Positions 3,069 through 20,440 of a DNA stretch of 64,000 bases are shown here, in pieces (the first letter of the stretch is position 1; the number at the start of each line of letters is the position of its first letter). The notes beneath the pieces are model-generated. The model was given only the letters and a program-made list of their open reading frames with translations, searched no databases and had not been told where the DNA came from. Where the stretch lies: positions 32,001 to 96,000 of IMG/VR virus record IMGVR_UViG_3300018080_005856, one strand, 5' to 3'. The translations under genes were made by a program, and so were the position numbers. Source of the DNA: a virus.

Positions 3069-3440
3069 TTATTCTCCATTAACAATTGAGATTTCCGCCT
3101 CCCTCGCGTGACCTTCTCTGATCTCACGAATTATGTCTTTTACTGTGGTTGTGTTAAAGTCTACTACTGGATCTACTACTGGATTGTGGGTAATCCTTCT
3201 TATATACGTTGCTGGGATTCCCAAAAGAAGTACAATACCTTCAAAATATCCTGCTACATTAATTGTCCTAAGGTCTTCTGATATTTCCAGAACTACCACA
3301 TTCAAGGTGTCATATTGTCCAAACTCTTTGTATCCTGCTACCGTTATCATTACGTTCAAGTATATACGAGTGAAGCTATTAAGGTAGGGTTTAAAACCTT
3401 CAGCACGTAGTATATCTAATATATCCACACTTTGTTTCAT
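3069..3440 (-). CDS. putative Sm-like protein (paralog family A)
   Basis: VVVLEISEDLRTINV...GIPATYIRRI; clearly similar to the adjacent 3437..3769. Confidence 0.6.
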   Translation of the reverse strand: MKQSVDILDILRAEGFKPYLNSFTRIYLNVMITVAGYKEFGQYDTLNVVVLEISEDLRTINVAGYFEGIVLLLGIPATYIRRITHNPVVDPVVDFNTTTVKDIIREIREGHAREAEISIVNGE

Positions 3441-3769
3441 AGCAGGGACACCTCAGCTTTCTCGAAGGCTTCGCTCTTGAACATATCAATAAGACGTTTG
3501 CTGTGCATATCACCAAGGCTAAGAGGCTCCACTCTCCTTACAAATCTTATAGGAATATCAGACAGAATGTTACAAGAATACCCAAAGTCGTATATTAGCC
3601 TAACATGTGAACAATCTTCTGATATTCCTAGTATTACCCCTACAAGCTCAAGTCCCCGCCATACCTCTTTGTCAGCAACTACATTAGCCAGTTTAATGAA
3701 ACAAATACAGCACAGTCTATTACTAAGCTCGGTAAACTGTGCCGCACGTATTACATCAGTGATGTTCAT
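3437..3769 (-). CDS. putative Sm-like protein (paralog family A)
   Basis: LVGVILGISEDCSHVRL...DIPIRFVRRVEP. Confidence 0.6.
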   Translation of the reverse strand: MNITDVIRAAQFTELSNRLCCICFIKLANVVADKEVWRGLELVGVILGISEDCSHVRLIYDFGYSCNILSDIPIRFVRRVEPLSLGDMHSKRLIDMFKSEAFEKAEVSLL

Positions 3770-3774
3770 GGTGC

Positions 3775-4392
3775 CTATTTCATTATCTTCATAAGGTTAT
3801 CTTTTCCCATTCTCCTCAGGGCACGCTCCAGAAACTCTTGACTGTTGCAACGTATCTCTTGGGACGGTGGAGAATACCGACTGGAGAAAGTTACGGTGGC
3901 TAAGCTGTTAGTCTGGGTATCATAACAGATACCATACCTGCAACTTCTCCTGGGCTCTAGCTCGTCTAGTTCTTCTGCGAGGTCTCTAAGGCTTTGCGCT
4001 ATTATAAGAGCTTCTACATACTCTTCAGCTTCTTCCTCTGTCTTGAAGTAGTTTCCTATAGAGAATCTGAAATTATCTTCTCCACTTCTGGCATCTACAG
4101 TTTCCTCAATGGCTCCGTCATTTCCGACAAAGTGGTATGTGTCAAACCGTTTGCGCTTGCTGGTGCTCCGATGTTCTCCTCTCTCAAGCTTATCGATGTC
4201 CTCGCTCAGCTCTCTCACTTGCCTCTGATACATCAAAACACTATCTTCTAGAACTAGAAGCCTGTTGTCAATCTCCGATAGAGCATCTTTGATTTCCCTA
4301 TTTGAAAGACTCTTAGATATTGGTGCTTTAGATTTAGTGGGCATTATGTTCCTCCTTTTCTTCACAGATATTGTGCGTATATCTCTTGTCAT
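3775..4392 (-). CDS. hypothetical protein, coiled coil plus GNYF motif
   Basis: DNFRFSIGNYFKTEEEAE motif typical of small phage proteins; true start probably MPTKSK after the AGGAGG. Confidence 0.7.
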   Translation of the reverse strand: MTRDIRTISVKKRRNIMPTKSKAPISKSLSNREIKDALSEIDNRLLVLEDSVLMYQRQVRELSEDIDKLERGEHRSTSKRKRFDTYHFVGNDGAIEETVDARSGEDNFRFSIGNYFKTEEEAEEYVEALIIAQSLRDLAEELDELEPRRSCRYGICYDTQTNSLATVTFSSRYSPPSQEIRCNSQEFLERALRRMGKDNLMKIMK

Positions 4393-5101
4393 AGTTTGCT
4401 GTTGCTATTTCCAGAATTTCCCTGTTTATAGCTTTACCATGTTTATGAAACTCGAATGGTATATCACCAAACATATGAGATCCAAAACTACTAGAGAAGA
4501 ATTTCATCATATAGTTTTCTAGAATCCTGTTGTCTATTGATTGTACCAGTTCTACTAACAACGAAATGCCGTGTTTCCCTACAACCCGAGCTAGTGTTTC
4601 CACATCTTCCCTATTAGCAGCTCCACAAATTGTATGTATTGTAGGGCCCATGTGGCCCGTGTTTGCATATATCATGCATACATTCAGCATCCTATAACAG
4701 TTTTCACCAAACTTCTCTGCTTGATATGTTCTCAGTCTCTCGCCATATGTTCCTCTTCTGTAGAATACGTATCTATCTACGTCACCATCTAACATACCAA
4801 AGAACTTTAATGCTACCATGGTAGTCATCCACATGTTGATGTAATCTTCTTCCTTGCTTATGTATTTAAGCAGCTTCTTTGAAATCCATGGTATTTCATC
4901 TCCTGCTAGATCTGTTCTCTCGAAGAGTTCCAACATGGTTACCTCACTTTTGCCTCCGAATAGTTCCTCTACTCTTCTTCTTGGGTAGCCAGAACATGGC
5001 TTCCATGACATTATTAAACCTGGGGTCAGGGTTATCATATGATATTCCTCCTTTATTGTAATTTGTAGGTATAGAAACGAATAAACTATTCGAACGAACA
5101 C
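4334..5101 (-). CDS. hypothetical protein
   Basis: 255-aa ORF; AAGGAGG RBS favours a start at MITLTPG (~5038). Confidence 0.7.
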   Translation of the reverse strand: MFVRIVYSFLYLQITIKEEYHMITLTPGLIMSWKPCSGYPRRRVEELFGGKSEVTMLELFERTDLAGDEIPWISKKLLKYISKEEDYINMWMTTMVALKFFGMLDGDVDRYVFYRRGTYGERLRTYQAEKFGENCYRMLNVCMIYANTGHMGPTIHTICGAANREDVETLARVVGKHGISLLVELVQSIDNRILENYMMKFFSSSFGSHMFGDIPFEFHKHGKAINREILEIATANYDKRYTHNICEEKEEHNAH

Positions 5102-5454
5102 TTAACCATAGTTGGTTTTGTACCGGACTTAGGTTGCGAATGAGTCCATGTATACATTGAGGGTACAGTATGTATCTCTCCTATCTTATCAAAGGGTATC
5201 CACATTCTTACTCGTGGGTATCCATACATGAAGGAGGAGTACTCGAATAATAGTTCATAATTATCATTTGTTCTTATCACTATTCCGTCTAGCTTGGAGG
5301 ATCTGTATATTTGACTCTTTTGGTCCTTCTCCTGGAGGATATTAACCTTTATCGCCCCGGCTATATGAATAACCACATGCTGGCCTATCTTATCTTCTAT
5401 GGATACTCGCCTCAGTTCGTTGAATATGTTAGCCACAGTGTGTCTCCTTCTCAT
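5086..5454 (-). CDS. putative Sm-like protein (paralog family A)
   Basis: KIGQHVVIHI...LDGIVIRTNDNYELLF...WIPFDKIGEIHTV. Confidence 0.6.
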   Translation of the reverse strand: MRRRHTVANIFNELRRVSIEDKIGQHVVIHIAGAIKVNILQEKDQKSQIYRSSKLDGIVIRTNDNYELLFEYSSFMYGYPRVRMWIPFDKIGEIHTVPSMYTWTHSQPKSGTKPTMVKCSFE

Positions 5455-5855
5455 GCCGTAACGTAATATGTTGTTGTTTCATAGGACGCATACACTCCTC
5501 CAACATGGGCGGACATTTTGGAGTTGGTCCTAGGGTTGTCGTATAACATCTCCCAGGTTTCGCTACATCTTATCCTTCTTATACCGTAAATGAGATCTGC
5601 TGTTGTAGTATTTCTACCTGGAAAACCACTGCTGTGTGGCTGGATGAATATCTCAAACCCACTGTTGTATGCCAACTCGCGGATAGAGCTGATGTATACC
5701 CTAAATAAGTAATCTTGAATGAGCGATACATCTATATCTACAGGTCTTTTAGTAGATATAAGATTGCATAATCTTAAGGCCTGGCAGAAACCTATTTCAT
5801 CCACAAGGGCTTGCGGTAGCAAGCTGTGATTTGTCATGTCATTCCTCCTGCACAA
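5451..5855 (-). CDS. hypothetical protein
   Basis: ORF coupled to neighbours; start likely ~5837 after AGGAGG. Confidence 0.6.
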   Translation of the reverse strand: MCRRNDMTNHSLLPQALVDEIGFCQALRLCNLISTKRPVDIDVSLIQDYLFRVYISSIRELAYNSGFEIFIQPHSSGFPGRNTTTADLIYGIRRIRCSETWEMLYDNPRTNSKMSAHVGGVYASYETTTYYVTA

Positions 5856-6213
5856 ACTTATCTAGGGATTTGGCGTTTACTCCAACAATTACATCCCATT
5901 CTGCGACGGTTGGCTTTACCATGTGCCTTGGTACTATACTGCTTATAGCATCAAAAGGAATTACAGCTCTCAAATCAATACTACTAGAAATGATTTGGTC
6001 TGGGCCAACCCTTGAATCAACAGTGAAACTATTATTGTCTACATATGTTACAATCCCATCCATGCATTCCACATATATGTTGGCTCTACTGTCAGGAATT
6101 AGATCATTATCATTTGCTGGTACCAGTACACATCTTTTCCCAATGTACTGTTCCAGTGACTTTCTTCTAAGTACATTAAACACAGTGGGAGATCTTTTTG
6201 ACATGTCAACCAA
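5839..6213 (-). CDS. putative Sm/Hfq-like protein (paralog family A)
   Basis: YIGKRCVLV...MDGIVTYVDNNSFTV...VIPFDAISSIVP resembles the Hfq Sm2 motif (VYKHAISTVVP); ATG at 6204. Confidence 0.6.
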   Translation of the reverse strand: MVDMSKRSPTVFNVLRRKSLEQYIGKRCVLVPANDNDLIPDSRANIYVECMDGIVTYVDNNSFTVDSRVGPDQIISSSIDLRAVIPFDAISSIVPRHMVKPTVAEWDVIVGVNAKSLDKFVQEE

Positions 6214-10375: not shown

Positions 10376-10499
10376 GTTACATCCTCCTTAAGTTATATTC
10401 ATATATATAGAAAGGCGAATCTTAAGCCATGTGTTCCAGAGTACCAGTAAAAGAAGCGGGCGTTAGCCCGCGGTTGTTTCTCACTATGATGACCTATTG

Positions 10500-10781
10500 C
10501 TACTCGGGGTAGCTGTTGTCGCCCTCGGCTTCAGCTTCCTCGGGTTGCTCTTTATTAGCTTCAGCAACAGAGCCACTTACCTTCTCAAGATACTCCTTTG
10601 CAGGTATTGTGACTTCATAGGTCGGAAGTATGATGGTCGTCCTCATGATGTCTTCACCGGTTGACTTGTTCTTATAGTCACCCTTACGCTCTCTGAACTC
10701 ACATTTCTTGAGAACTTCCTCATCAAATAAGCCCATCTTCTTTAGCTGAACGAATTGGCCTCTAGTAATCGTACATTGCAT
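10500..10781 (-). CDS. hypothetical protein with acidic tail
   Basis: CAGGAGG RBS; followed by the GCGGGC-TAAC-GCCCGC terminator. Confidence 0.7.
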   Translation of the reverse strand: MQCTITRGQFVQLKKMGLFDEEVLKKCEFRERKGDYKNKSTGEDIMRTTIILPTYEVTIPAKEYLEKVSGSVAEANKEQPEEAEAEGDNSYPE

Positions 10782-10981
10782 GACGATACCCTCCTGTTTG
10801 TGATTCGCGAATCAAGAATGATTCACGCGAGATATTTCTATCTCATATGTATGGAAAGGAAAGGGCCTTTCGGCCCTTAGGGATCATAGCGTTTATCAAA
10901 CAAGGGATGACCCCTTATCAATCATCATACTAGGAGATACCATAAATATGGAAAAAGAGAGCTGGCCTGCTCTCTTAATCC

Positions 10982-11104
10982 GTGCGTGTTATAGTATTGG
11001 CTTTGTTCCTGCGGTCAGCCTACCCAGCAGTTGAGCAGTTACAGGAACTATAAGTGCTCACCACCGGCTCCTCTGGATCCGCGAAATCCTTCGGGATAAC
11101 ACAC
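10982..11104 (-). ncRNA. candidate structured ncRNA with kissing loop
   Basis: Closing stem GTGTGTTAT/ATAACACGC; hairpin CCGGTGGTGAGCA/TGCTCAACTGCTGG whose loop GTTCCTGT complements loop GCAGGAAC of the next hairpin; has its own promoter motif and terminator. Confidence 0.55.
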
Positions 11105-11139
11105 CTCTGTATTATACCACGAGTAAGGAATCGAAGAAA

Positions 11140-11398: not shown

Positions 11399-11677
11399 TT
11401 ATCCGAGATGTATGGGTCTGTTCTTCATATAGATATAGGCAACAAGTCCAGCTACGGCTACACATCCGAATCCTGTGAGGAACAGGTACAGAATAGTAAG
11501 CCATATGCTTCCAGTTCCTATCAAGAACAGAACTATTGAGCCTGTAGCCATGGCCCCTACTATCCATAGTTTCTTATCGTAGATATTCGGGTTGTTTCTC
11601 TTTACATTCACTGAGAATGCCCACCAGCTTACTACGATAGAAGCCACATAAACCAGAACGGCTAGAAATGTAATCAT
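11399..11677 (-). CDS. membrane protein (3 TM)
   Basis: Three hydrophobic segments; GGAGGAGG RBS. Confidence 0.75.
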   Translation of the reverse strand: MITFLAVLVYVASIVVSWWAFSVNVKRNNPNIYDKKLWIVGAMATGSIVLFLIGTGSIWLTILYLFLTGFGCVAVAGLVAYIYMKNRPIHLG

Positions 11678-11722
11678 GATAACACCTCCTCCATCTATTC
11701 TATCAGTAAGGAAAGAAGGGGA

Positions 11723-11923
11723 CTACTCGTCCCCGAAGATGTTGTCCTGGCATTTCTGGCACAACCCTGATATTTCGTACTCTTTCCGAGATAGATCATC
11801 TCTGAAGCTATTCGGATTAGGGAGTACTACTTGATGGCAAATAGGACATCTACGTGACTCTATGTCCTTCTTTGCCTCAGGGAATACCTTGAATACGGGT
11901 TTGTTAAGATCTGGTTTATTCAT
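11723..11923 (-). CDS. small zinc-binding protein
   Basis: CPIC...FRDDLSRKEYEISGLCQKCQD motif. Confidence 0.75.
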   Translation of the reverse strand: MNKPDLNKPVFKVFPEAKKDIESRRCPICHQVVLPNPNSFRDDLSRKEYEISGLCQKCQDNIFGDE

Positions 11924-11978
11924 GTCTAAACAGCCTCCAGACTAACCATATTATGAATATTACTATCAACAATTCCAT
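11916..11978 (-). CDS. 20-aa hydrophobic micropeptide
   Basis: TAAGGAGG RBS then MELLIVIFIIWLVWRLFRHE*. Confidence 0.5.
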   Translation of the reverse strand: MELLIVIFIIWLVWRLFRHE

Positions 11979-12009
11979 GACTGGCCTCCTTATCATAAGT
12001 ATGAAATTT

Positions 12010-12641
12010 ATCCCCCTTTCCTGTATCCGGGGTACCATTGTCCCTTCAGACTCGCGCCCCTCTTGAGGAAGCTTAATAATAACAGAGCGCACCATTCCAG
12101 ACATCTGCGAGCGAACGGCGCCAGCCGGCCGGAGATGCACAGCTATGCCTGTCATTCTACCGTGCGTCATTCAAGAGATGGAATTAAGCCTCGCGAGGGA
12201 CTAAAGAGAAATACTCTGACGGCTACTCGTCAATAGTCTAATAAGGGATTATCGCCCGGGAAAATAGCCCTGTAACCCAGTACATTTCCCTATGGCTCCG
12301 GCTATTGCTCGGTCACTCTCCCCCTCAAGGGGGCCGGACGCCTCTTACAATCCTATTTCTCAGCTGTTTTCATGTACATCCCTCTCCTGTACATGAATGC
12401 TGTCGACACTTCCATAAATCCTCCGGGGAAAGGGTAATCACCCCCAGATATCCAGTATAAATACTGATATATCCAGGGACGGGGGAGGAAATCCCCCGGA
12501 CCCCCTCTATTCCTAGCCAATCAAGATCCTGAACCGGTAAAATATATAGATCGGGTATGAGCCGATCCATATATCTGTCACAGAAGCGTCAGCCACACCC
12601 CTGCCGGTCGGCCCCACCAATGGCTGAAATGGGAAGGCCCC
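12010..12641 (-). ncRNA. candidate large (~630 nt) structured ncRNA
   Basis: No RBS-led ORF; GC-rich; many stems including long-range GACGCTTCT/AGAGGCGTC and a pseudoknot; starts right after the promoter motif at 12647. Confidence 0.6.
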
Positions 12642-12671
12642 ATTTGTATGGAAAAGAAGAGGCCGTAGCCT

Positions 12672-12938
12672 CTATTCATTGCTAGTTGATATGACTATTC
12701 GCCCTTCATCATCAAACTCGTTGTTGTGTTCGTATGGGTTATACCCCATCCTCTTTAAATCATGTAAGGCGGCACGGCAGGATTTTATCTCGCCGTTGCA
12801 ACTAAAGACGATAAGTATGGTGATATGGTCACCAGTATGCTCGTCCACCGCGCAGAGGTCAACGTTAGTATGGACGGACTTCTCCAGCACTATACACCAG
12901 TGCTTGTTTTCTTTATGTTTTCCTTCAAACATTCTCAT
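12672..12938 (-). CDS. hypothetical protein
   Basis: AAGGAGG RBS; terminator AGAGGCTACGGCCTCT overlaps the stop. Confidence 0.75.
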   Translation of the reverse strand: MRMFEGKHKENKHWCIVLEKSVHTNVDLCAVDEHTGDHITILIVFSCNGEIKSCRAALHDLKRMGYNPYEHNNEFDDEGRIVISTSNE

Positions 12939-13058
12939 CTCTATTTCCTCCTTGTTTTATCATAGCCAATTTGGGGGGTCTACCAAAGCAGAACACCCCC
13001 AAAGTAAGCTATTATGATCAACGTCCTCATAAATATAGAAAAGAAGAGGCCGTAGCCT

Positions 13059-13334
13059 CTATACTCGCCAGGTTCTTATATCATTGACGGCCTTACTAAT
13101 ATCAACGTGTTGAGCCAGAATATCTCGGGCTACGTCTATCTTTCCCTGTCTGTAGGCCTCGTACCATATGGCCTGAGTAAGCTCAGATATTGCTTTTATA
13201 TCCTCATCTTTTACATCCTTTCCCATATGTACTACCTTATCCAGGAACTGGAAAGCGCATCTGTGGATTTGAACTCGGTGCAGCTCACTATCCTCTGAAA
13301 ACGTTACTTCACATAGAACTAAAGAATCGTCCAT
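13059..13334 (-). CDS. hypothetical protein
   Basis: AAAGGAGGT RBS sets the start at 13334 (MDDSLV); same terminator sequence as the next gene. Confidence 0.7.
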   Translation of the reverse strand: MDDSLVLCEVTFSEDSELHRVQIHRCAFQFLDKVVHMGKDVKDEDIKAISELTQAIWYEAYRQGKIDVARDILAQHVDISKAVNDIRTWRV

Positions 13335-13408
13335 GTATATTACCTCCTTTAATGTAGTTGACTTATGATCAATGTCCTCGTAAATATGGAAAAGAGGGCT
13401 ATTAACCC

Positions 13409-13816
13409 TCAGTGTGAGCATGGTGCCCCTGTAGCAAGGCGCGCCTCAGCGTCAGCGGGGTTCTCACCCGCATTTACATGGACAAACTCTATTTCTATTT
13501 GGTCCTTCACACGAGTTATCCACTCCTGGTACTCTTTTGTGGCCGGTTTCTTAGCCTTCCAAGAGCCATTCGCCCAAGCAGATACACCTTCGTAGTAGTG
13601 TTTAATGACTACTTTCTCGTACCCCTTGGAATGAGCATATCTGACAGCCTCTATGGCTGCCTTGATTTCGCCCCCTACGTTCCTCATAGAGACAATATCG
13701 TCCCTAACTAAGGCGCCATGGGCTTTATACCCATCAGAAGCCACTATCCCCCAACCCACAAGGGTTGGATTATTAATAGTAAACGAGCCGTCAGTATAAA
13801 CCTCTATAGTTCTCAC
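13409..13816 (-). CDS. RNase HI-fold protein (possibly catalytically altered)
   Basis: VYTDGSF, RNVGGEIKAAIEAV, EGVSAWANGSWKAKK and NPADAEAR motifs; GGAGGTG RBS with GTG start. Confidence 0.85.
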   Translation of the reverse strand: MRTIEVYTDGSFTINNPTLVGWGIVASDGYKAHGALVRDDIVSMRNVGGEIKAAIEAVRYAHSKGYEKVVIKHYYEGVSAWANGSWKAKKPATKEYQEWITRVKDQIEIEFVHVNAGENPADAEARLATGAPCSH

Positions 13817-13864
13817 AACATCACCTCCAATACAGATATATAACAAATCTCATATATATAGAAA

Positions 13865-14245
13865 CACGCTATATTACCTCTTTTATTACCTTTACATACT
13901 GAGATATTACCCTCACTACATACATCTCATTGCCCTTACATACAATATGGGGGTGCGTCCCTCTATACAGTACTCCCCTTCTATGCCATTACAATACCTA
14001 TACCGGGTACAATACAATACAATACTAGATACAATACCAGGTACATGAACTTGACAGGGCTAGGACGCTCATTATTTATATACTGAGCTATTATTTGTGA
14101 CCTGACTTATGCAGGTCATTATATGGGTTTAAGACCCATATTATTGGCAAAACTGTCAGATTCTTGACAGTAATTTGCTTATGGGTTCCCCTCCCTAAAG
14201 GGCACCCTCCCCATGTGTTCCTTATGTGTTTTTATGTTAAAAGGG
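13865..14245. repeat. non-coding region with CAATA/TATTAC short repeats and hairpins
   Basis: tacaatacaatacaatac at ~14008-14025, tattacc x3, inverted repeats TGACCTG/CAGGTCA, ATATGGGT/ACCCATAT and CTGTCA/TGACAG. Confidence 0.5.
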
Positions 14246-14248
14246 GGC

Positions 14249-14584
14249 CTAGTGGCCCCAGATCTTATGGTCTTGATACTTCCATATAGGCAGTGATATG
14301 CTATATACTAGGGCGCCTAGCACCGCAGTATTTCTACAGTAGTACCAGAGACACTTCAATATGGCCGGATAGCCGTAATAATACGCTACCAGGGTCCATA
14401 TTCCGAATATGAAGGAACAGGTATATGCCAGCATAGCTAGCGTTTCACTTTCCCTCCATGTTGCCATTCCTATCAGGAATAGCACCGCAGTTATAATATG
14501 TAACCCATACGCTACAGATAGGACACTTCCGTATTCTGTAGACTGACTCAGTATGGGCCTTCCCTCTATAATGAACCAATCCAC
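14249..14584 (-). CDS. membrane protein
   Basis: Three hydrophobic segments; GGAGGT RBS with GTG start. Confidence 0.7.
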   Translation of the reverse strand: MDWFIIEGRPILSQSTEYGSVLSVAYGLHIITAVLFLIGMATWRESETLAMLAYTCSFIFGIWTLVAYYYGYPAILKCLWYYCRNTAVLGALVYSISLPIWKYQDHKIWGH

Positions 14585-14764
14585 GATTACCTCCAGTAAG
14601 TATGATTATATTGTACTTTCTTGCTGTTATGGGCTGTCACAGCAAGGAGACGAGGGGGTAGCCTAAGTACATAGGCATCCAGATTCCGAGTCAGGTACTG
14701 GCTAAACGACAGTCCTGATTCTCACCCATGGGTATGGAAACGTAAAGGGGAGGGCCTTAGCCCT

Positions 14765-14944
14765 CTATTCTAATGTGGTTACGATCTCTTTTACCAACTC
14801 CATTCCCTCTTTCCCATACTCTATGAGTTTAGGGAGTTCATCTCCGGAGATCTCATATTTGAGATCTACTTTGGCGCCTGACAGGCTGAACTTCTCGTCC
14901 GGGACTTCAAGGGACTTTACTTCGAATGTCATTTGCATGATCAT
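14765..14944 (-). CDS. small hypothetical protein (59 aa, not in ORF track)
   Basis: AGGAG RBS; MIMQMTFEVKSLEVPDEKFSLSGAKVDLKYEISG...; flanked by a promoter motif and a terminator. Confidence 0.7.
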   Translation of the reverse strand: MIMQMTFEVKSLEVPDEKFSLSGAKVDLKYEISGDELPKLIEYGKEGMELVKEIVTTLE

Positions 14945-15035
14945 GATATATACTCCTGTTAGTATGATTTGGGACTCTATATCCCACTATTATGGAAAGA
15001 TGAGGGCCTATTAAGCCCTCTATGTTTACTCGGTT

Positions 15036-15308
15036 TTAACCCTCTCTGACGGTAGCTGTCTGCCGGGACAATTTCTCCATCTTTACGAGGGCTTTCTGCT
15101 CTTTCCTGTATGCGTTTACAGCATTAAGCAGGTGCTGCCTGCAGACGTGGCAGGACATGATATGATCGATTGTTTCGATGTTATCATGAATGAGCTTCTC
15201 GCTCTTCTCTGCATTGTTACAGGTATTATGTTCGACCCACTTCTTCTCCAGTTTGTGAGAAGTGTTTGCGAGTCCTGTTACGGCGTTAGTTACTATGTTC
15301 TTAAACAT
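15036..15308 (-). CDS. hypothetical protein
   Basis: TAAGGAGGT RBS; 90 aa; H..SC..C motif. Confidence 0.7.
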   Translation of the reverse strand: MFKNIVTNAVTGLANTSHKLEKKWVEHNTCNNAEKSEKLIHDNIETIDHIMSCHVCRQHLLNAVNAYRKEQKALVKMEKLSRQTATVREG

Positions 15309-15347
15309 AGTGGTACCTCCTTAGGTAATATTCATGAGTATGGAAAA

Positions 15348-15473
15348 GAGAGGCGAGCCGGTGCAATATCCTGCGTGCCCTCGTTAACTTTCAGATGTTT
15401 CGGGAGTAACCCTATCAACTGTTGGTATGGAGTGACGCATTCCCTTTCCCCGTTGGGACACCGTGATCCTCTC
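15348..15473 (-). ncRNA. candidate ~125-nt structured ncRNA
   Basis: Nested stems GAGAGG/CCTCTC, CGGTGT/GCACCG and TGCGT/ACGCA; begins at the G of the promoter motif and ends in a T tract; no ORF. Confidence 0.5.
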
Positions 15474-15495
15474 ATTTATATGGAAAGAGAAGGGG

Positions 15496-17013: not shown

Positions 17014-19458
17014 TTAGCCAAGTAACCTCTCCGCATAGAGGCATGCCATACCATTCATACCTCTTACGTTGGAAACCTCCTTTCTCTCTACGAGTGCTTG
17101 CACGAACACCGCATATAGAACGATAGCCCTTTCGATCTTAGATACATCGAGTGTATCTATTATCTCTGGGTTATCATGGAGTTGTTTCCTGGTAGTTCCG
17201 ACAATCTTCTCAAGAAGAGTATCCACAACTACCATGTGGACATGAGCCATAGGCTTATGAGCTAACGCCCACATCTGCAGCATGACCTCTCTTTCTTCGG
17301 CGGAGATCAAAGGCTTAGCCGCTTTAATGTTGTCAGCACGAAACTCGCCAGCAACATCAAAGATCTTGTCGGTATCAAGCTCTACTCTATACACCTGACG
17401 TATAGCCTGAGCGAAGGATTCTGCAGTTCCTTCTCTCCAGCCGACAAGTTTACCACTGATGACAGTAGCGGTAGGGGACTCCCTGTCACCAATGAGAAGT
17501 TTACCAAGAACTGTGTCACACAGTTCATAGGCTTCATTGACCCCAACAGATAGGCCAACATACTTCTTAATCCCTTGGACACTGTCCTGGATAGACTGTG
17601 CCAGAGGTAGAAGATCACTCATAGCAGATTCTAAAGCATCTGACCGGAAATCATAGACAGTAGCCAGACATTTCATGTAAGCCGCTACAAGTATAGCTGT
17701 TCTCTCTTGACACCACCTGCCATGCATACAGGCTGTCCAGGGAGTAAGCTCACCTTCAGCAGGTACCGATGATTTATCTATCATTCCGAAATCATCAGTA
17801 GCCCGCACCATGCTTCTATACCCCGGGAGGAATAGAGCATGATCATCACAGTCAGACTGCCAACCAACTGTGGCTTCCAAACACACTACAGCCACGACTC
17901 CATCTACATCATCCAAGGTATGCTCAGATAGACGTAGATCTAAGAAGGAGCCCTTTGTAGTATTTGGATACCTGACCCCAGCAACAAAGTCAGATATTTC
18001 TCCAGTCCGAATAGTAAACTGAGTAAATCCAGACTGAAGTGCATCCCGCATTTCACGAGATGGTACAAACTCCCCAGGAAGAAGCTTGTGAACGTGACCA
18101 CCATCCACAACCACATGAGTCCTGTGTATTATTGCTGCATATACAGAACTCGGGGCATTGGCACTCATAAGAGCCTTAGACCTCTTATTAAGTCCCATTA
18201 TGACTCCCGGATCGTTTGCAGGAAGATATCCAAGAACATACTTAGACAGATAGCTATCTATAAGTACATCCTCTTCATCATTGGATAGACCCATATCCAA
18301 GTGACGATACATGGATCCCCTGAGATCATTCAGAGCTGCAGTCTTACCAAATGCCTCTTTACGGAGAAGAGCCATGATATCTTTCCGTGTGACCTTATCC
18401 CACTGTCCAAGAACCATATAGAACAGGTTCAGGCGATAAGCCTCCTTCTGTTCATGGTTCTCAATCTTGGACAGCCCGATAGTCATGTCGAGAACTACGG
18501 AGTCTTTCCCGGCATAATCTACCTTTATCCATTTGATAGCCGAGTCATAACACCAACCATCAAACTCCTCTGGAATAGGCTTTCCATCTGGTCCTATAGA
18601 AGCCTGTGCTGGGGAGTGGAGCAGCCTCCCCTTCACTATTCCAGTCTTTCCATCCATAGGAACAAGACCTCTTACAAGACCAAAGTCCCCGGATTGTAGG
18701 ATACTTGCTCTGCGGACTAAGATCACACCATCCGCATCCAGAGTATTACCTACTTCAGAAAGCTCCTCTGGGAATACCTTTATCTTGAGCTGATCAGGCA
18801 TTCCGAGGATCTCAGACCAACCGTCTTTACCCGCCCTTATGCGAAGGACGTTGACCTCTTGATCTGATACGTTGCCACACGCTTCACGGATAACGTCAGC
18901 AAACATGTCCCTATTCACCGAAACTATTCCATTCAGAATGGTTTCAGCTCTCCTGGAGGATATCCAGGAAGGATGTGCCGGGAATGCTACACCCTTAACA
19001 CCTGTCATCTTGAGGGCATACTCAAAGAGTCTACCTCTCAGAAAGGTGCTACATGAAATCAGGTTGAGATTAAAGCGCTCCTTTCCCTTCTGATTCCGGT
19101 TCCTTTTAGCTATCTGTTGACCGTTGTACTTTAAGCCAGCACAATAGCTACGGCCTGCACGAGATCTCCGCATATCCCTTGCGAGCTCGACACCGAGGAC
19201 TTCTGCCAGTGCTGCAGCTGTAAATGTCTTAGTAACATCTACAGCCACCTGACGAAGCTCTCTTTTCCTGAAGGCCTTAAATGCCTTAAAGACATAAGAC
19301 CCAGGGAGGACGATCTGATTCTTTATATACGGTGATACAAAGAACCTGTCCCCGTTCCAAACAAGCGTCTTTCCAGGCAATGGCCTGAAGTCAGCTTGCT
19401 CAGATGCCCGGAGAGATGACCCTCCGAGTAACAACTTAAGTAACCCATGATTATCCAT
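17014..19458 (-). CDS. putative single-subunit two-barrel RNA polymerase (YonO / QDE-1 RdRP-like) with DCDD motif
   Basis: Ordered motifs DADGVILV, FGLVRG...IVKGRL, SAIKW, YRLNLF, LLPGEF, GVRYP, QSDCDD and LAQSIQDSVQGIKK parallel the cellular RdRP/YonO series DG.G.I, QIR...KG.L, S..KF, LN.Q, L..GEV, RxP, DxDGD and AVD..K; CAGGAGGT RBS. Confidence 0.7.
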   Translation of the reverse strand: MDNHGLLKLLLGGSSLRASEQADFRPLPGKTLVWNGDRFFVSPYIKNQIVLPGSYVFKAFKAFRKRELRQVAVDVTKTFTAAALAEVLGVELARDMRRSRAGRSYCAGLKYNGQQIAKRNRNQKGKERFNLNLISCSTFLRGRLFEYALKMTGVKGVAFPAHPSWISSRRAETILNGIVSVNRDMFADVIREACGNVSDQEVNVLRIRAGKDGWSEILGMPDQLKIKVFPEELSEVGNTLDADGVILVRRASILQSGDFGLVRGLVPMDGKTGIVKGRLLHSPAQASIGPDGKPIPEEFDGWCYDSAIKWIKVDYAGKDSVVLDMTIGLSKIENHEQKEAYRLNLFYMVLGQWDKVTRKDIMALLRKEAFGKTAALNDLRGSMYRHLDMGLSNDEEDVLIDSYLSKYVLGYLPANDPGVIMGLNKRSKALMSANAPSSVYAAIIHRTHVVVDGGHVHKLLPGEFVPSREMRDALQSGFTQFTIRTGEISDFVAGVRYPNTTKGSFLDLRLSEHTLDDVDGVVAVVCLEATVGWQSDCDDHALFLPGYRSMVRATDDFGMIDKSSVPAEGELTPWTACMHGRWCQERTAILVAAYMKCLATVYDFRSDALESAMSDLLPLAQSIQDSVQGIKKYVGLSVGVNEAYELCDTVLGKLLIGDRESPTATVISGKLVGWREGTAESFAQAIRQVYRVELDTDKIFDVAGEFRADNIKAAKPLISAEEREVMLQMWALAHKPMAHVHMVVVDTLLEKIVGTTRKQLHDNPEIIDTLDVSKIERAIVLYAVFVQALVERKEVSNVRGMNGMACLYAERLLG

Positions 19459-20050: not shown

Positions 20051-20106
20051 TATGTTTCGGATCCCGCTACAGATCCTCATCAGTGGGCTTAAGCTACCCA
20101 TACATA
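20051..20106 (-). ncRNA. type III hammerhead ribozyme 1
   Basis: UAUGUA^UGGGU-AGCUUAA-GCCCA CUGAUGA GGAUCU-GUAGCG-GGAUCC GAAACAUA; complete core, cleavage predicted between 20101 and 20100. Confidence 0.92.
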
Positions 20107-20135
20107 GGGACAGTTTTACATCATGTCCCAGGATG
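20107..20135 (-). ncRNA. H-type pseudoknot 5' of hammerhead 1
   Basis: CATC-CT-GGGACA-T-GATG-TAAAAC-TGTCCC. Confidence 0.7.
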
Positions 20136-20141
20136 TAATGC

Positions 20142-20330
20142 TTAACGATATTGAGATAGATCTATACCTTTAACATTAAACCTACCAAATACTGCTTCAC
20201 GCTCAGCATTAACAGCCTTAAGCTTTCTTAAAGCCATCTGCACCTTTGCAGCGTGATACGGGTGAGCCTTGCAGAATTCAGCTATCTGCTCTGGGCTCAT
20301 TTCGAGTAAAGTTTTAACTAGTTCGACCAT
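20142..20330 (-). CDS. hypothetical early protein flanked by two hammerheads
   Basis: TAGGAGGT RBS, 62 aa. Confidence 0.8.
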   Translation of the reverse strand: MVELVKTLLEMSPEQIAEFCKAHPYHAAKVQMALRKLKAVNAEREAVFGRFNVKGIDLSQYR

Positions 20331-20348
20331 AATGGACCTCCTATAGTA

Positions 20349-20405
20349 GTGTTTCGGCTCTTGCTTAGGGAGCCATCTTCAGTGGGCTTAAAGCTACCCA
20401 GACAC
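20349..20405 (-). ncRNA. type III hammerhead ribozyme 2
   Basis: GUGUC^UGGGU-AGCUUUAA-GCCCA CUGAAGA U GGCUC-CCUAAGCAA-GAGCC GAAACAC; one extra U after A9; cleavage predicted between 20401 and 20400. Confidence 0.88.
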
Positions 20406-20406
20406 C

Positions 20407-20433
20407 GGGTAGTTTTACATCATACCCAGGATG
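20407..20433 (-). ncRNA. H-type pseudoknot 5' of hammerhead 2
   Basis: CATC-CT-GGGTA-T-GATG-TAAAAC-TACCC; stem 2 differs from copy 1 yet pairing is kept. Confidence 0.7.
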
Positions 20434-20440
20434 CTTGAGC

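Follow-up and report, generated by a model that had tools for sequence, protein, structure and literature searches.

The minus-strand stretch that runs from position 12641 down to 12010 is a real, unusual non-coding gap in the genome of an environmental phage, and on purely compositional and thermodynamic evidence it is a plausible but unproven structured RNA. It begins at a promoter-like motif, contains no ORF led by a Shine-Dalgarno (SD) sequence, exceeds the rest of the genome in GC content and opens with a 200-nt domain whose predicted fold is both stable and strand-specific. The stretch may well be a long structured 5' leader of the small genes that follow it, acting in cis, and this is the reading that we tentatively prefer; what we infer for it is that transcription starts at the motif and extends through the downstream genes, and that the RNA has a stabilising or regulatory role. 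The present value of the stretch is that of a flagged candidate and not of a discovery. Should the stretch prove to be a functional RNA, an almost unsampled phage lineage would gain an orphan large RNA, and the phage, with early-region cassettes that are partly ORF-less, would provide a compact system for the study of phage-encoded non-coding RNA.

The phage and its early-gene cassette array

The window, i.e. the whole 64,000-nt piece of DNA analysed, comprises bases 32001-96000 of the 150,487-bp IMG/VR virus record IMGVR_UViG_3300018080_005856, which has an estimated completeness of 79%. The source phage is very novel: among nine of its large proteins, PHROGs matches were obtained only for the terminase, a sheath-like protein and one family of unknown function. 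All genes leftwards from ~19.5 kb of the window lie on the minus strand, and at ~20 kb of the window, where the minus and plus gene blocks diverge, the cumulative GC skew of the whole record reaches its minimum. Upstream of the cassette array lies the gene of an 814-aa RNA-polymerase-like protein (17014-19458, minus), which matches no family in Pfam or PHROGs; 5.8 billion protein clusters contain only five relatives of it (34-65% identity). Among its invariant residues are Q534, S535, D536, D538 and D539, as well as a run of 13 invariant residues, Q621 to K632, with the motif QGIKK. Around the stretch itself, Pfam gave no family for the neighbouring genes except RNase H (13409-13846). The only tRNA that ARAGORN found in the window is a tRNA-Pro at 730-802, and neither a tRNA nor a tmRNA was found in the stretch.

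The initial annotation, made by reading the sequence, had described the stretch as GC-richer than its flanks, free of ORFs with a ribosome-binding site and beginning at a promoter motif, and each of these three points was borne out. The GC content of 51.8% is the maximum of all 637-nt windows of the 150-kb phage (mean 42.4%, sd 2.5), corresponding to an excess of 3.7 sd over the genome mean. No SD-led ORF was found on the minus strand between 12641 and 11979. All six frames over 12171-12641 are closed by a mixture of TAA, TAG and TGA; since every frame has two or all three of these stops, no single codon reassignment opens any of them, and an alternative genetic code for the stretch was thus ruled out. 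No Pfam or PHROG family was found for the in-region ORFs, their codon scores are low, and only 6-8% of the genome windows have as little period-3 power as 12010-12641. One of these ORFs, of 66 aa (12370-12570), has a codon score of -0.03 to -0.08, which is non-coding, and no period-3 signal. Apart from an ambiguous 84-aa ORF at its 3' side, the stretch lacks, as a protein-coding gene, the start signal, the codon bias, the periodicity and the homologues that would mark one. The features discussed here and below are collected in Table 1.

Table 1 Features in and around the stretch, in window coordinates, with the basis or details of each
Feature	Position	Strand	Basis or details
Intrinsic-terminator-like hairpin	12658-12673	minus	Terminator scan; ends upstream 88-aa gene
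Promoter-like motif TTTCCATA-N4-TG of the cassette array	12641-12654	minus	Motif and PWM scans
Structured 5' domain (predicted)	12442-12641	minus	MFE -92.9 kcal/mol, z -4.80; 0 of 200 shuffles as good
Middle part, GC-rich, poorly defined	12206-12441	minus	z -1.31; 19 of 200 shuffles as good; entropy 0.7-1.5
3' arm, irregular long hairpin (predicted)	12036-12205	minus	z -1.76; 10 of 200 shuffles as good
3' strand of predicted long-range closure	12014-12030	minus	Boltzmann ensemble
84-aa ORF, doubtful status	11916-12170	minus	No SD; overlaps 3' arm of the stretch
Strong Shine-Dalgarno sequence AAGGAGG	11985-11991	minus	Read directly; 6 nt before the ATG at 11978
20-aa hydrophobic sORF, SD-led	11916-11978	minus	Read directly
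66-aa CxxC...CxxC zinc-ribbon gene	11723-11923	minus	First conserved gene of the unit; 106 relatives, ≤67% identity

The promoter-like motif in front of the stretch occurs 25 times in the window, compared to 6.2 ± 2.7 matches expected from shuffles, and 15 minus-strand copies lie between 7816 and 15957. When a PWM was built from the motif copies and applied to the whole genome, 19 strong sites were obtained, 18 of them on the minus strand; the copy at 12641-12654 scored 25.2 bits and ranked fourth among the 19. Most copies precede SD-led start codons by 20-60 nt. The canonical terminators of the array are strong GC hairpins with a T-tract that leads into the next motif, and the T-tract of the terminator-like hairpin 12673-12658 likewise continues into the motif of the stretch. 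No hairpin precedes four of the 15 copies, which shows that the motif exists as a separate element and is more than the tail of a terminator. A transcript start at or near G12641 is likely.

The terminator-promoter junction at 12638-12675, 38 nt in length, is duplicated at 13025-13062 with 87% identity, the terminator hairpin being identical in both, which suggests shuffling or duplication of cassettes. The array also contains complete minus-strand cassettes without an ORF, at 15347-15486 and 10858-10954, in which the motif is followed by 70-110 nt and by a terminator hairpin that leads into the next motif. These two fold at z -1.1 and -2.5, respectively, and are candidates for stand-alone small RNA genes.

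Predicted folding of the stretch

The 5' domain of 200 nt is, in the fold predictions, the well-defined and convincing part of the stretch. Two hairpins, of 9 bp (12603-12581) and 15 bp (12576-12540), are enclosed by a predicted closing stem in three parts (12640-12621 with 12519-12498); downstream of this stem there are two more hairpins, at 12497-12481 and 12478-12442. The helix probabilities are 0.93-0.99 and the positional entropy is 0.1-0.46. The opposite strand of 12442-12641 reached only -65.6 kcal/mol (z -2.47) and is thus 27 kcal/mol less stable, a difference in keeping with G-U pairing in an RNA of minus-strand sense.

A highly structured RNA of ~630 nt had been proposed initially, and this description is appropriate for the first 200 nt (z -4.8), but not for the remaining ~430 nt, which fold no better than shuffles. 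Positional entropy is high in both the middle part and the 3' arm. The defined elements of the middle part are a 10-bp hairpin (12397-12369, P 0.97) and a C5/G5 hairpin (12333-12320, P 0.62), and in the 3' arm the pair probabilities are 0.17-0.6, save for an inner 9-bp helix (12121-12113/12097-12089) at 0.99. The predicted long-range closure pairs 12021-12014 with 12434-12427 (8 bp, P 1.0) and 12030-12027 with 12426-12423 (4 bp, P 0.83). By our estimate, chance alone would give ~3 perfect 8-bp complements in 637 nt, so the closure is no evidence by itself.

All complementarities named in the initial annotation were found at or near their places by minus-strand reading and a repeat scan, but not all of them form in the predicted ensemble. 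The hairpin 12576-12540, with 13-15 bp including G-U pairs, is present with P 0.996, and the 10-bp and C5/G5 hairpins of the middle part had also been pointed out correctly. The 7-nt pair 12627-12621/12595-12589 and the 9-nt long-range pair 12590-12582/12345-12337 are complementary, but both have an ensemble P of ~0, and forcing them costs +8.5 and +11 kcal/mol, respectively; other pairings, at P 0.98-0.99, prevail over them. Of the proposed pseudoknot, the complementarity of the two helices is real (12192-12183/12077-12068, 10 nt, and 12177-12171/12066-12060, 7 nt), but their coexistence is not predicted: at P 0.17 and 0.49, one helix competes with the other. On geometric grounds a 2-nt linker is unable to span a 10-bp helix as an H-type pseudoknot, and the helices therefore look like alternatives. 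The 6-nt pair that was thought to close this 3' domain (12201-12196/12045-12040) is present as a complementarity.

Taken as a whole, the stretch folds at z -2.6 to -3.0, which is ordinary for this genome and within the range of coding control windows: eight of 15 control windows of the same length and strand scored as low or lower, among them three inside the polymerase-like gene (z -4.0 to -5.8). The MFE topology of the whole stretch shifts when its ends are moved. Its hairpin density, with four distinct perfect stems of at least 9 bp, is in the top 2% of windows. Three minus-strand controls, 14600-15236, 10400-11036 and 13900-14536, gave z values of -6.8, -6.7 and -5.2, lower than the stretch itself; they contain intergenic gaps at 14585-14764, 10782-11139 and 13847-14248, respectively.

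Searches for relatives and likeness to known RNA systems

The stretch is an orphan in all collections searched and belongs to no described RNA family. When the whole window was compared with Rfam 15 by cmscan at gathering thresholds, a tRNA was the only match and nothing was reported in the stretch; when the 1.4 kb from 11600 to 13000 were scanned at E ≤ 10, three junk hits were obtained, none of them to ROOL, GOLLD or OLE. The cmscan check suggested initially has thus been negative, and so was the comparison with the ROOL/GOLLD/OLE class that its size had brought to mind. Group I and II introns, self-cleaving ribozymes, tmRNA, RNase P, 6S and omega RNAs were rejected by the same lack of a match at E ≤ 10. 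The ORFs that flank the stretch are complete, i.e. there is no interrupted host gene. Elsewhere in the window, the scan at gathering thresholds reported no hammerhead ribozyme at 20051-20434.

Collection of homologues, also proposed initially, yielded no diverged homologue; the six other copies compared are 100% identical over the stretch. The protein of the upstream 88-aa gene has no relative among 5.8 billion clusters and occurs on eight contigs. Six of these contigs are 98.8-99.3% identical overall, with 0 substitutions across 11589-13441, and these strain copies therefore carry no covariation information. No match to the stretch was found by blastn against phages and plasmids or in the whole records of five related viral contigs, and a self-search of the phage genome revealed no paralogue. 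Exact-pattern scans of IMG/VR and of prokaryotic genomes gave chance matches only, of 17-29 nt, and a covariance model of the 5' domain (R1) found only itself.

Among the relatives of the polymerase-like gene, those more distant than the closest one (65% identity) were examined in their DNA flanks, and no similar element was found by BLAST, nhmmer or eye; the junction motifs of these relatives differ from those of this phage. One of the contigs (L019, with a 44%-identical polymerase-like gene) has a 309-nt GC-rich gap at 5075-5383 before an SD-led gene, with 50.5% GC compared to 39.2% for the contig. This gap was rejected as a homologue of the stretch, the alignment score being that of shuffles. 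The junctions of the L019 contig carry a different motif, a hairpin plus a T-rich segment.

Among known RNA systems, OLE RNA is chromosomal in extremophilic Firmicutes and is encoded beside the gene of its partner protein. The stretch resembles it in being a GC-rich outlier gap of ~0.6 kb in a genome of lower GC, but it has no Rfam match and lies in a cassette array of phage early genes. The ompA leader and the hairpins at the 5' ends of T7 late mRNAs are examples of long structured 5' leaders and 5' stabiliser stem-loops. The order of elements in the stretch is similar, namely a promoter, a stem from about +1, an untranslated region and an SD-led ORF, with no intervening terminator; its 630 nt are, however, several-fold above the typical length of a stabiliser, and no ligand-binding or sRNA-binding element of the kind found in structured leaders is recognisable in it. 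With ColE1 RNA II and the T4 R-loop origins it would share a promoter-led, structured and untranslated transcript of ~0.55-0.65 kb with G-runs and an RNase H nearby, but not a skew switch, iterons or an unwinding element. The likeness to ROOL and GOLLD RNAs consists in being phage-borne, 0.5-0.8 kb long, without a known associated protein and located among small early or accessory genes. ROOL and GOLLD RNAs are often found near tRNA islands (PMC12286853), and a tRNA island lies upstream of the homologous zinc-ribbon gene in one relative (L005), whereas in this phage the nearest tRNA (730-802) is ~11 kb from the stretch. The stretch further differs from both in matching neither Rfam model even at E ≤ 10, in having no ornate fold supported by covariation (only 200 of its 630 nt are well defined) and in showing no sign of a separate 3' end.

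A proposed long 5' leader and the competing readings

The 20-aa sORF that follows the stretch overlaps with its end the start of the zinc-ribbon gene by 8 nt, an overlap from which translational coupling of the two may be inferred, and its product is likely a small membrane peptide or a leader peptide. Seven loci of the zinc-ribbon gene were found in IMG/VR. Upstream of its relatives (≤67% identity) there are ordinary genes and no gap, with the exception of the locus L005, in which a 10-tRNA island (3069-3898) lies directly upstream of the relative, in the slot equivalent to the stretch. In another locus (L004), ARAGORN predicted a permuted tmRNA at 5622-6016, ~1.4 kb downstream of the zinc-ribbon relative.

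No strong terminator was found inside the stretch: the only two candidate hairpins reach -8.2 kcal/mol (z about -1) and -7.1 kcal/mol (z about 0). From 12641 down to 11364 the minus strand contains no further PWM site above 8 bits, and a degenerate second promoter immediately ahead of the SD sequence was rejected for scoring less than 8 bits on the PWM. The arrangement of a long leader, i.e. an upstream promoter with neither a terminator nor a second promoter before the first SD-led ORF, is therefore what the sequence points to. With no terminator or second promoter in front of the downstream genes, a free-standing large ncRNA is no more likely than a long 5' leader.

For the stretch as a leader, we envisage that transcription begins at the cassette promoter-like motif (12654-12641), that a stable domain of several hairpins forms in the first ~200 nt, its closing stem starting at about +1, and that ~430 nt of GC-rich, loosely defined RNA follow. 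The same transcript would run on into the 20-aa sORF, the coupled 66-aa zinc-ribbon gene and a 92-aa membrane-protein gene. The 5' domain may protect the transcript against 5'-end-dependent decay, the leader may set the timing or the yield of the downstream small genes, and part of it could possibly be released by processing as a stable RNA. Sequestration of the SD sequence by the 5' end over long range was considered, and is absent from the predicted fold. Several observations argue against a leader. The ~430 nt fold no better than shuffles and the whole-stretch z is ordinary, neither covariation nor a diverged homologue was found, and few bacterial or phage leaders are as long as 630 nt. The period-3 signal of the 84-aa ORF also speaks against it, as do the ORF-less mini-cassettes, which run from promoter to terminator in the same array and indicate that stand-alone RNA genes occur there.

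The mini-cassettes count at the same time for a free-standing, trans-acting large ncRNA of a new class, 0.43-0.63 kb in length and transcribed from the phage's own promoter class, which we nevertheless regard as rather unlikely. Weak termination near 12216 or 12013, or else processing, would set such an RNA free, and it might act in host takeover as a ROOL/GOLLD-like multimeric scaffold, a sponge or a decoy of host nucleases or defence. It would agree with the stretch being the GC-richest long gene-free gap of the genome, a classic signature in searches for large ncRNAs, with the promoter-like motif of its own, with the well-defined 5' domain and with the 10-tRNA island in the equivalent slot of L005, considering the frequent position of ROOL and GOLLD near such islands (PMC12286853). 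The lack of an Rfam match even at E ≤ 10 and of any homologue by BLAST, nhmmer or covariance model in the loci and records searched is against it, as is the 3' end, which has no canonical terminator-promoter junction, unlike the other cassettes. Two thirds of the stretch also fold no better than chance, and this would also agree with a non-functional spacer, a decayed remnant of foreign DNA of higher GC (a gene or an RNA island) that is merely read through. The orphan status in every search and the composition foreign to this genome fit such a spacer, and the faint period-3 signal at the 3' side could then be a coding fossil. We still find it distinctly improbable: the 5' domain is strongly and strand-specifically stable from the predicted +1, no similarity to the tested phage, plasmid or prokaryotic sequences and no remnant of a tRNA or other RNA at E ≤ 10 was found, and phage genomes are compact.

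The same period-3 signal (11978-12170, P=0.004 compared to shuffles) could instead mean that the 3' quarter is coding, the 84-aa ORF (12170-11916) being a tail-anchored small membrane protein and the untranslated part then being ~470 nt (12641-12171). The coding status of this ORF is ambiguous, and we take its being a gene as decidedly unlikely. Its codon score of 0.06-0.10 compares with 0.108-0.30 in real small genes, the upper value being close to the 0.117 of the neighbouring real 88-aa gene, and the JGI gene callers annotate it in two of six contigs. On the other hand, its ATG at 12170 has no SD sequence, unlike those of the neighbouring genes, and codon-position composition does not favour its frame. 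Its last 20 codons are those of the SD-led sORF, and the perfect internal SD sequence would have to be two tandem AGG codons. Among 1.84 billion representative proteins it matched only itself, and a random ORF of 84 codons would be less surprising at 52% GC. Only a very small chance is given to an origin of transcription-primed replication, in which the phage RNase H, whose gene lies ~0.8 kb upstream, would process a structured pre-primer transcript rich in G-runs. The promoter-led untranslated RNA of ~0.6 kb, the 25-27-fold enrichment of G5-containing 6-mers in the stretch over the genome frequency and the Pfam RNase_H gene at 13409-13846 would agree with it. The cumulative GC-skew minimum is, however, at ~20 kb of the window, away from the stretch, repeat and k-mer scans revealed no iterons or enriched repeated protein-binding site, no AT-rich unwinding element was found after the stretch, and RNase H genes are common in large phages.

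The RNase H gene differs in another respect from its surroundings. Over 13442-13776 there are 34 substitutions in 335 nt relative to the contigs L009-L014, strains that are otherwise near-identical, and in the next 1.85 kb (11589-13441) there are none. This cluster of substitutions beside an invariant segment looks like a recombination mosaic.
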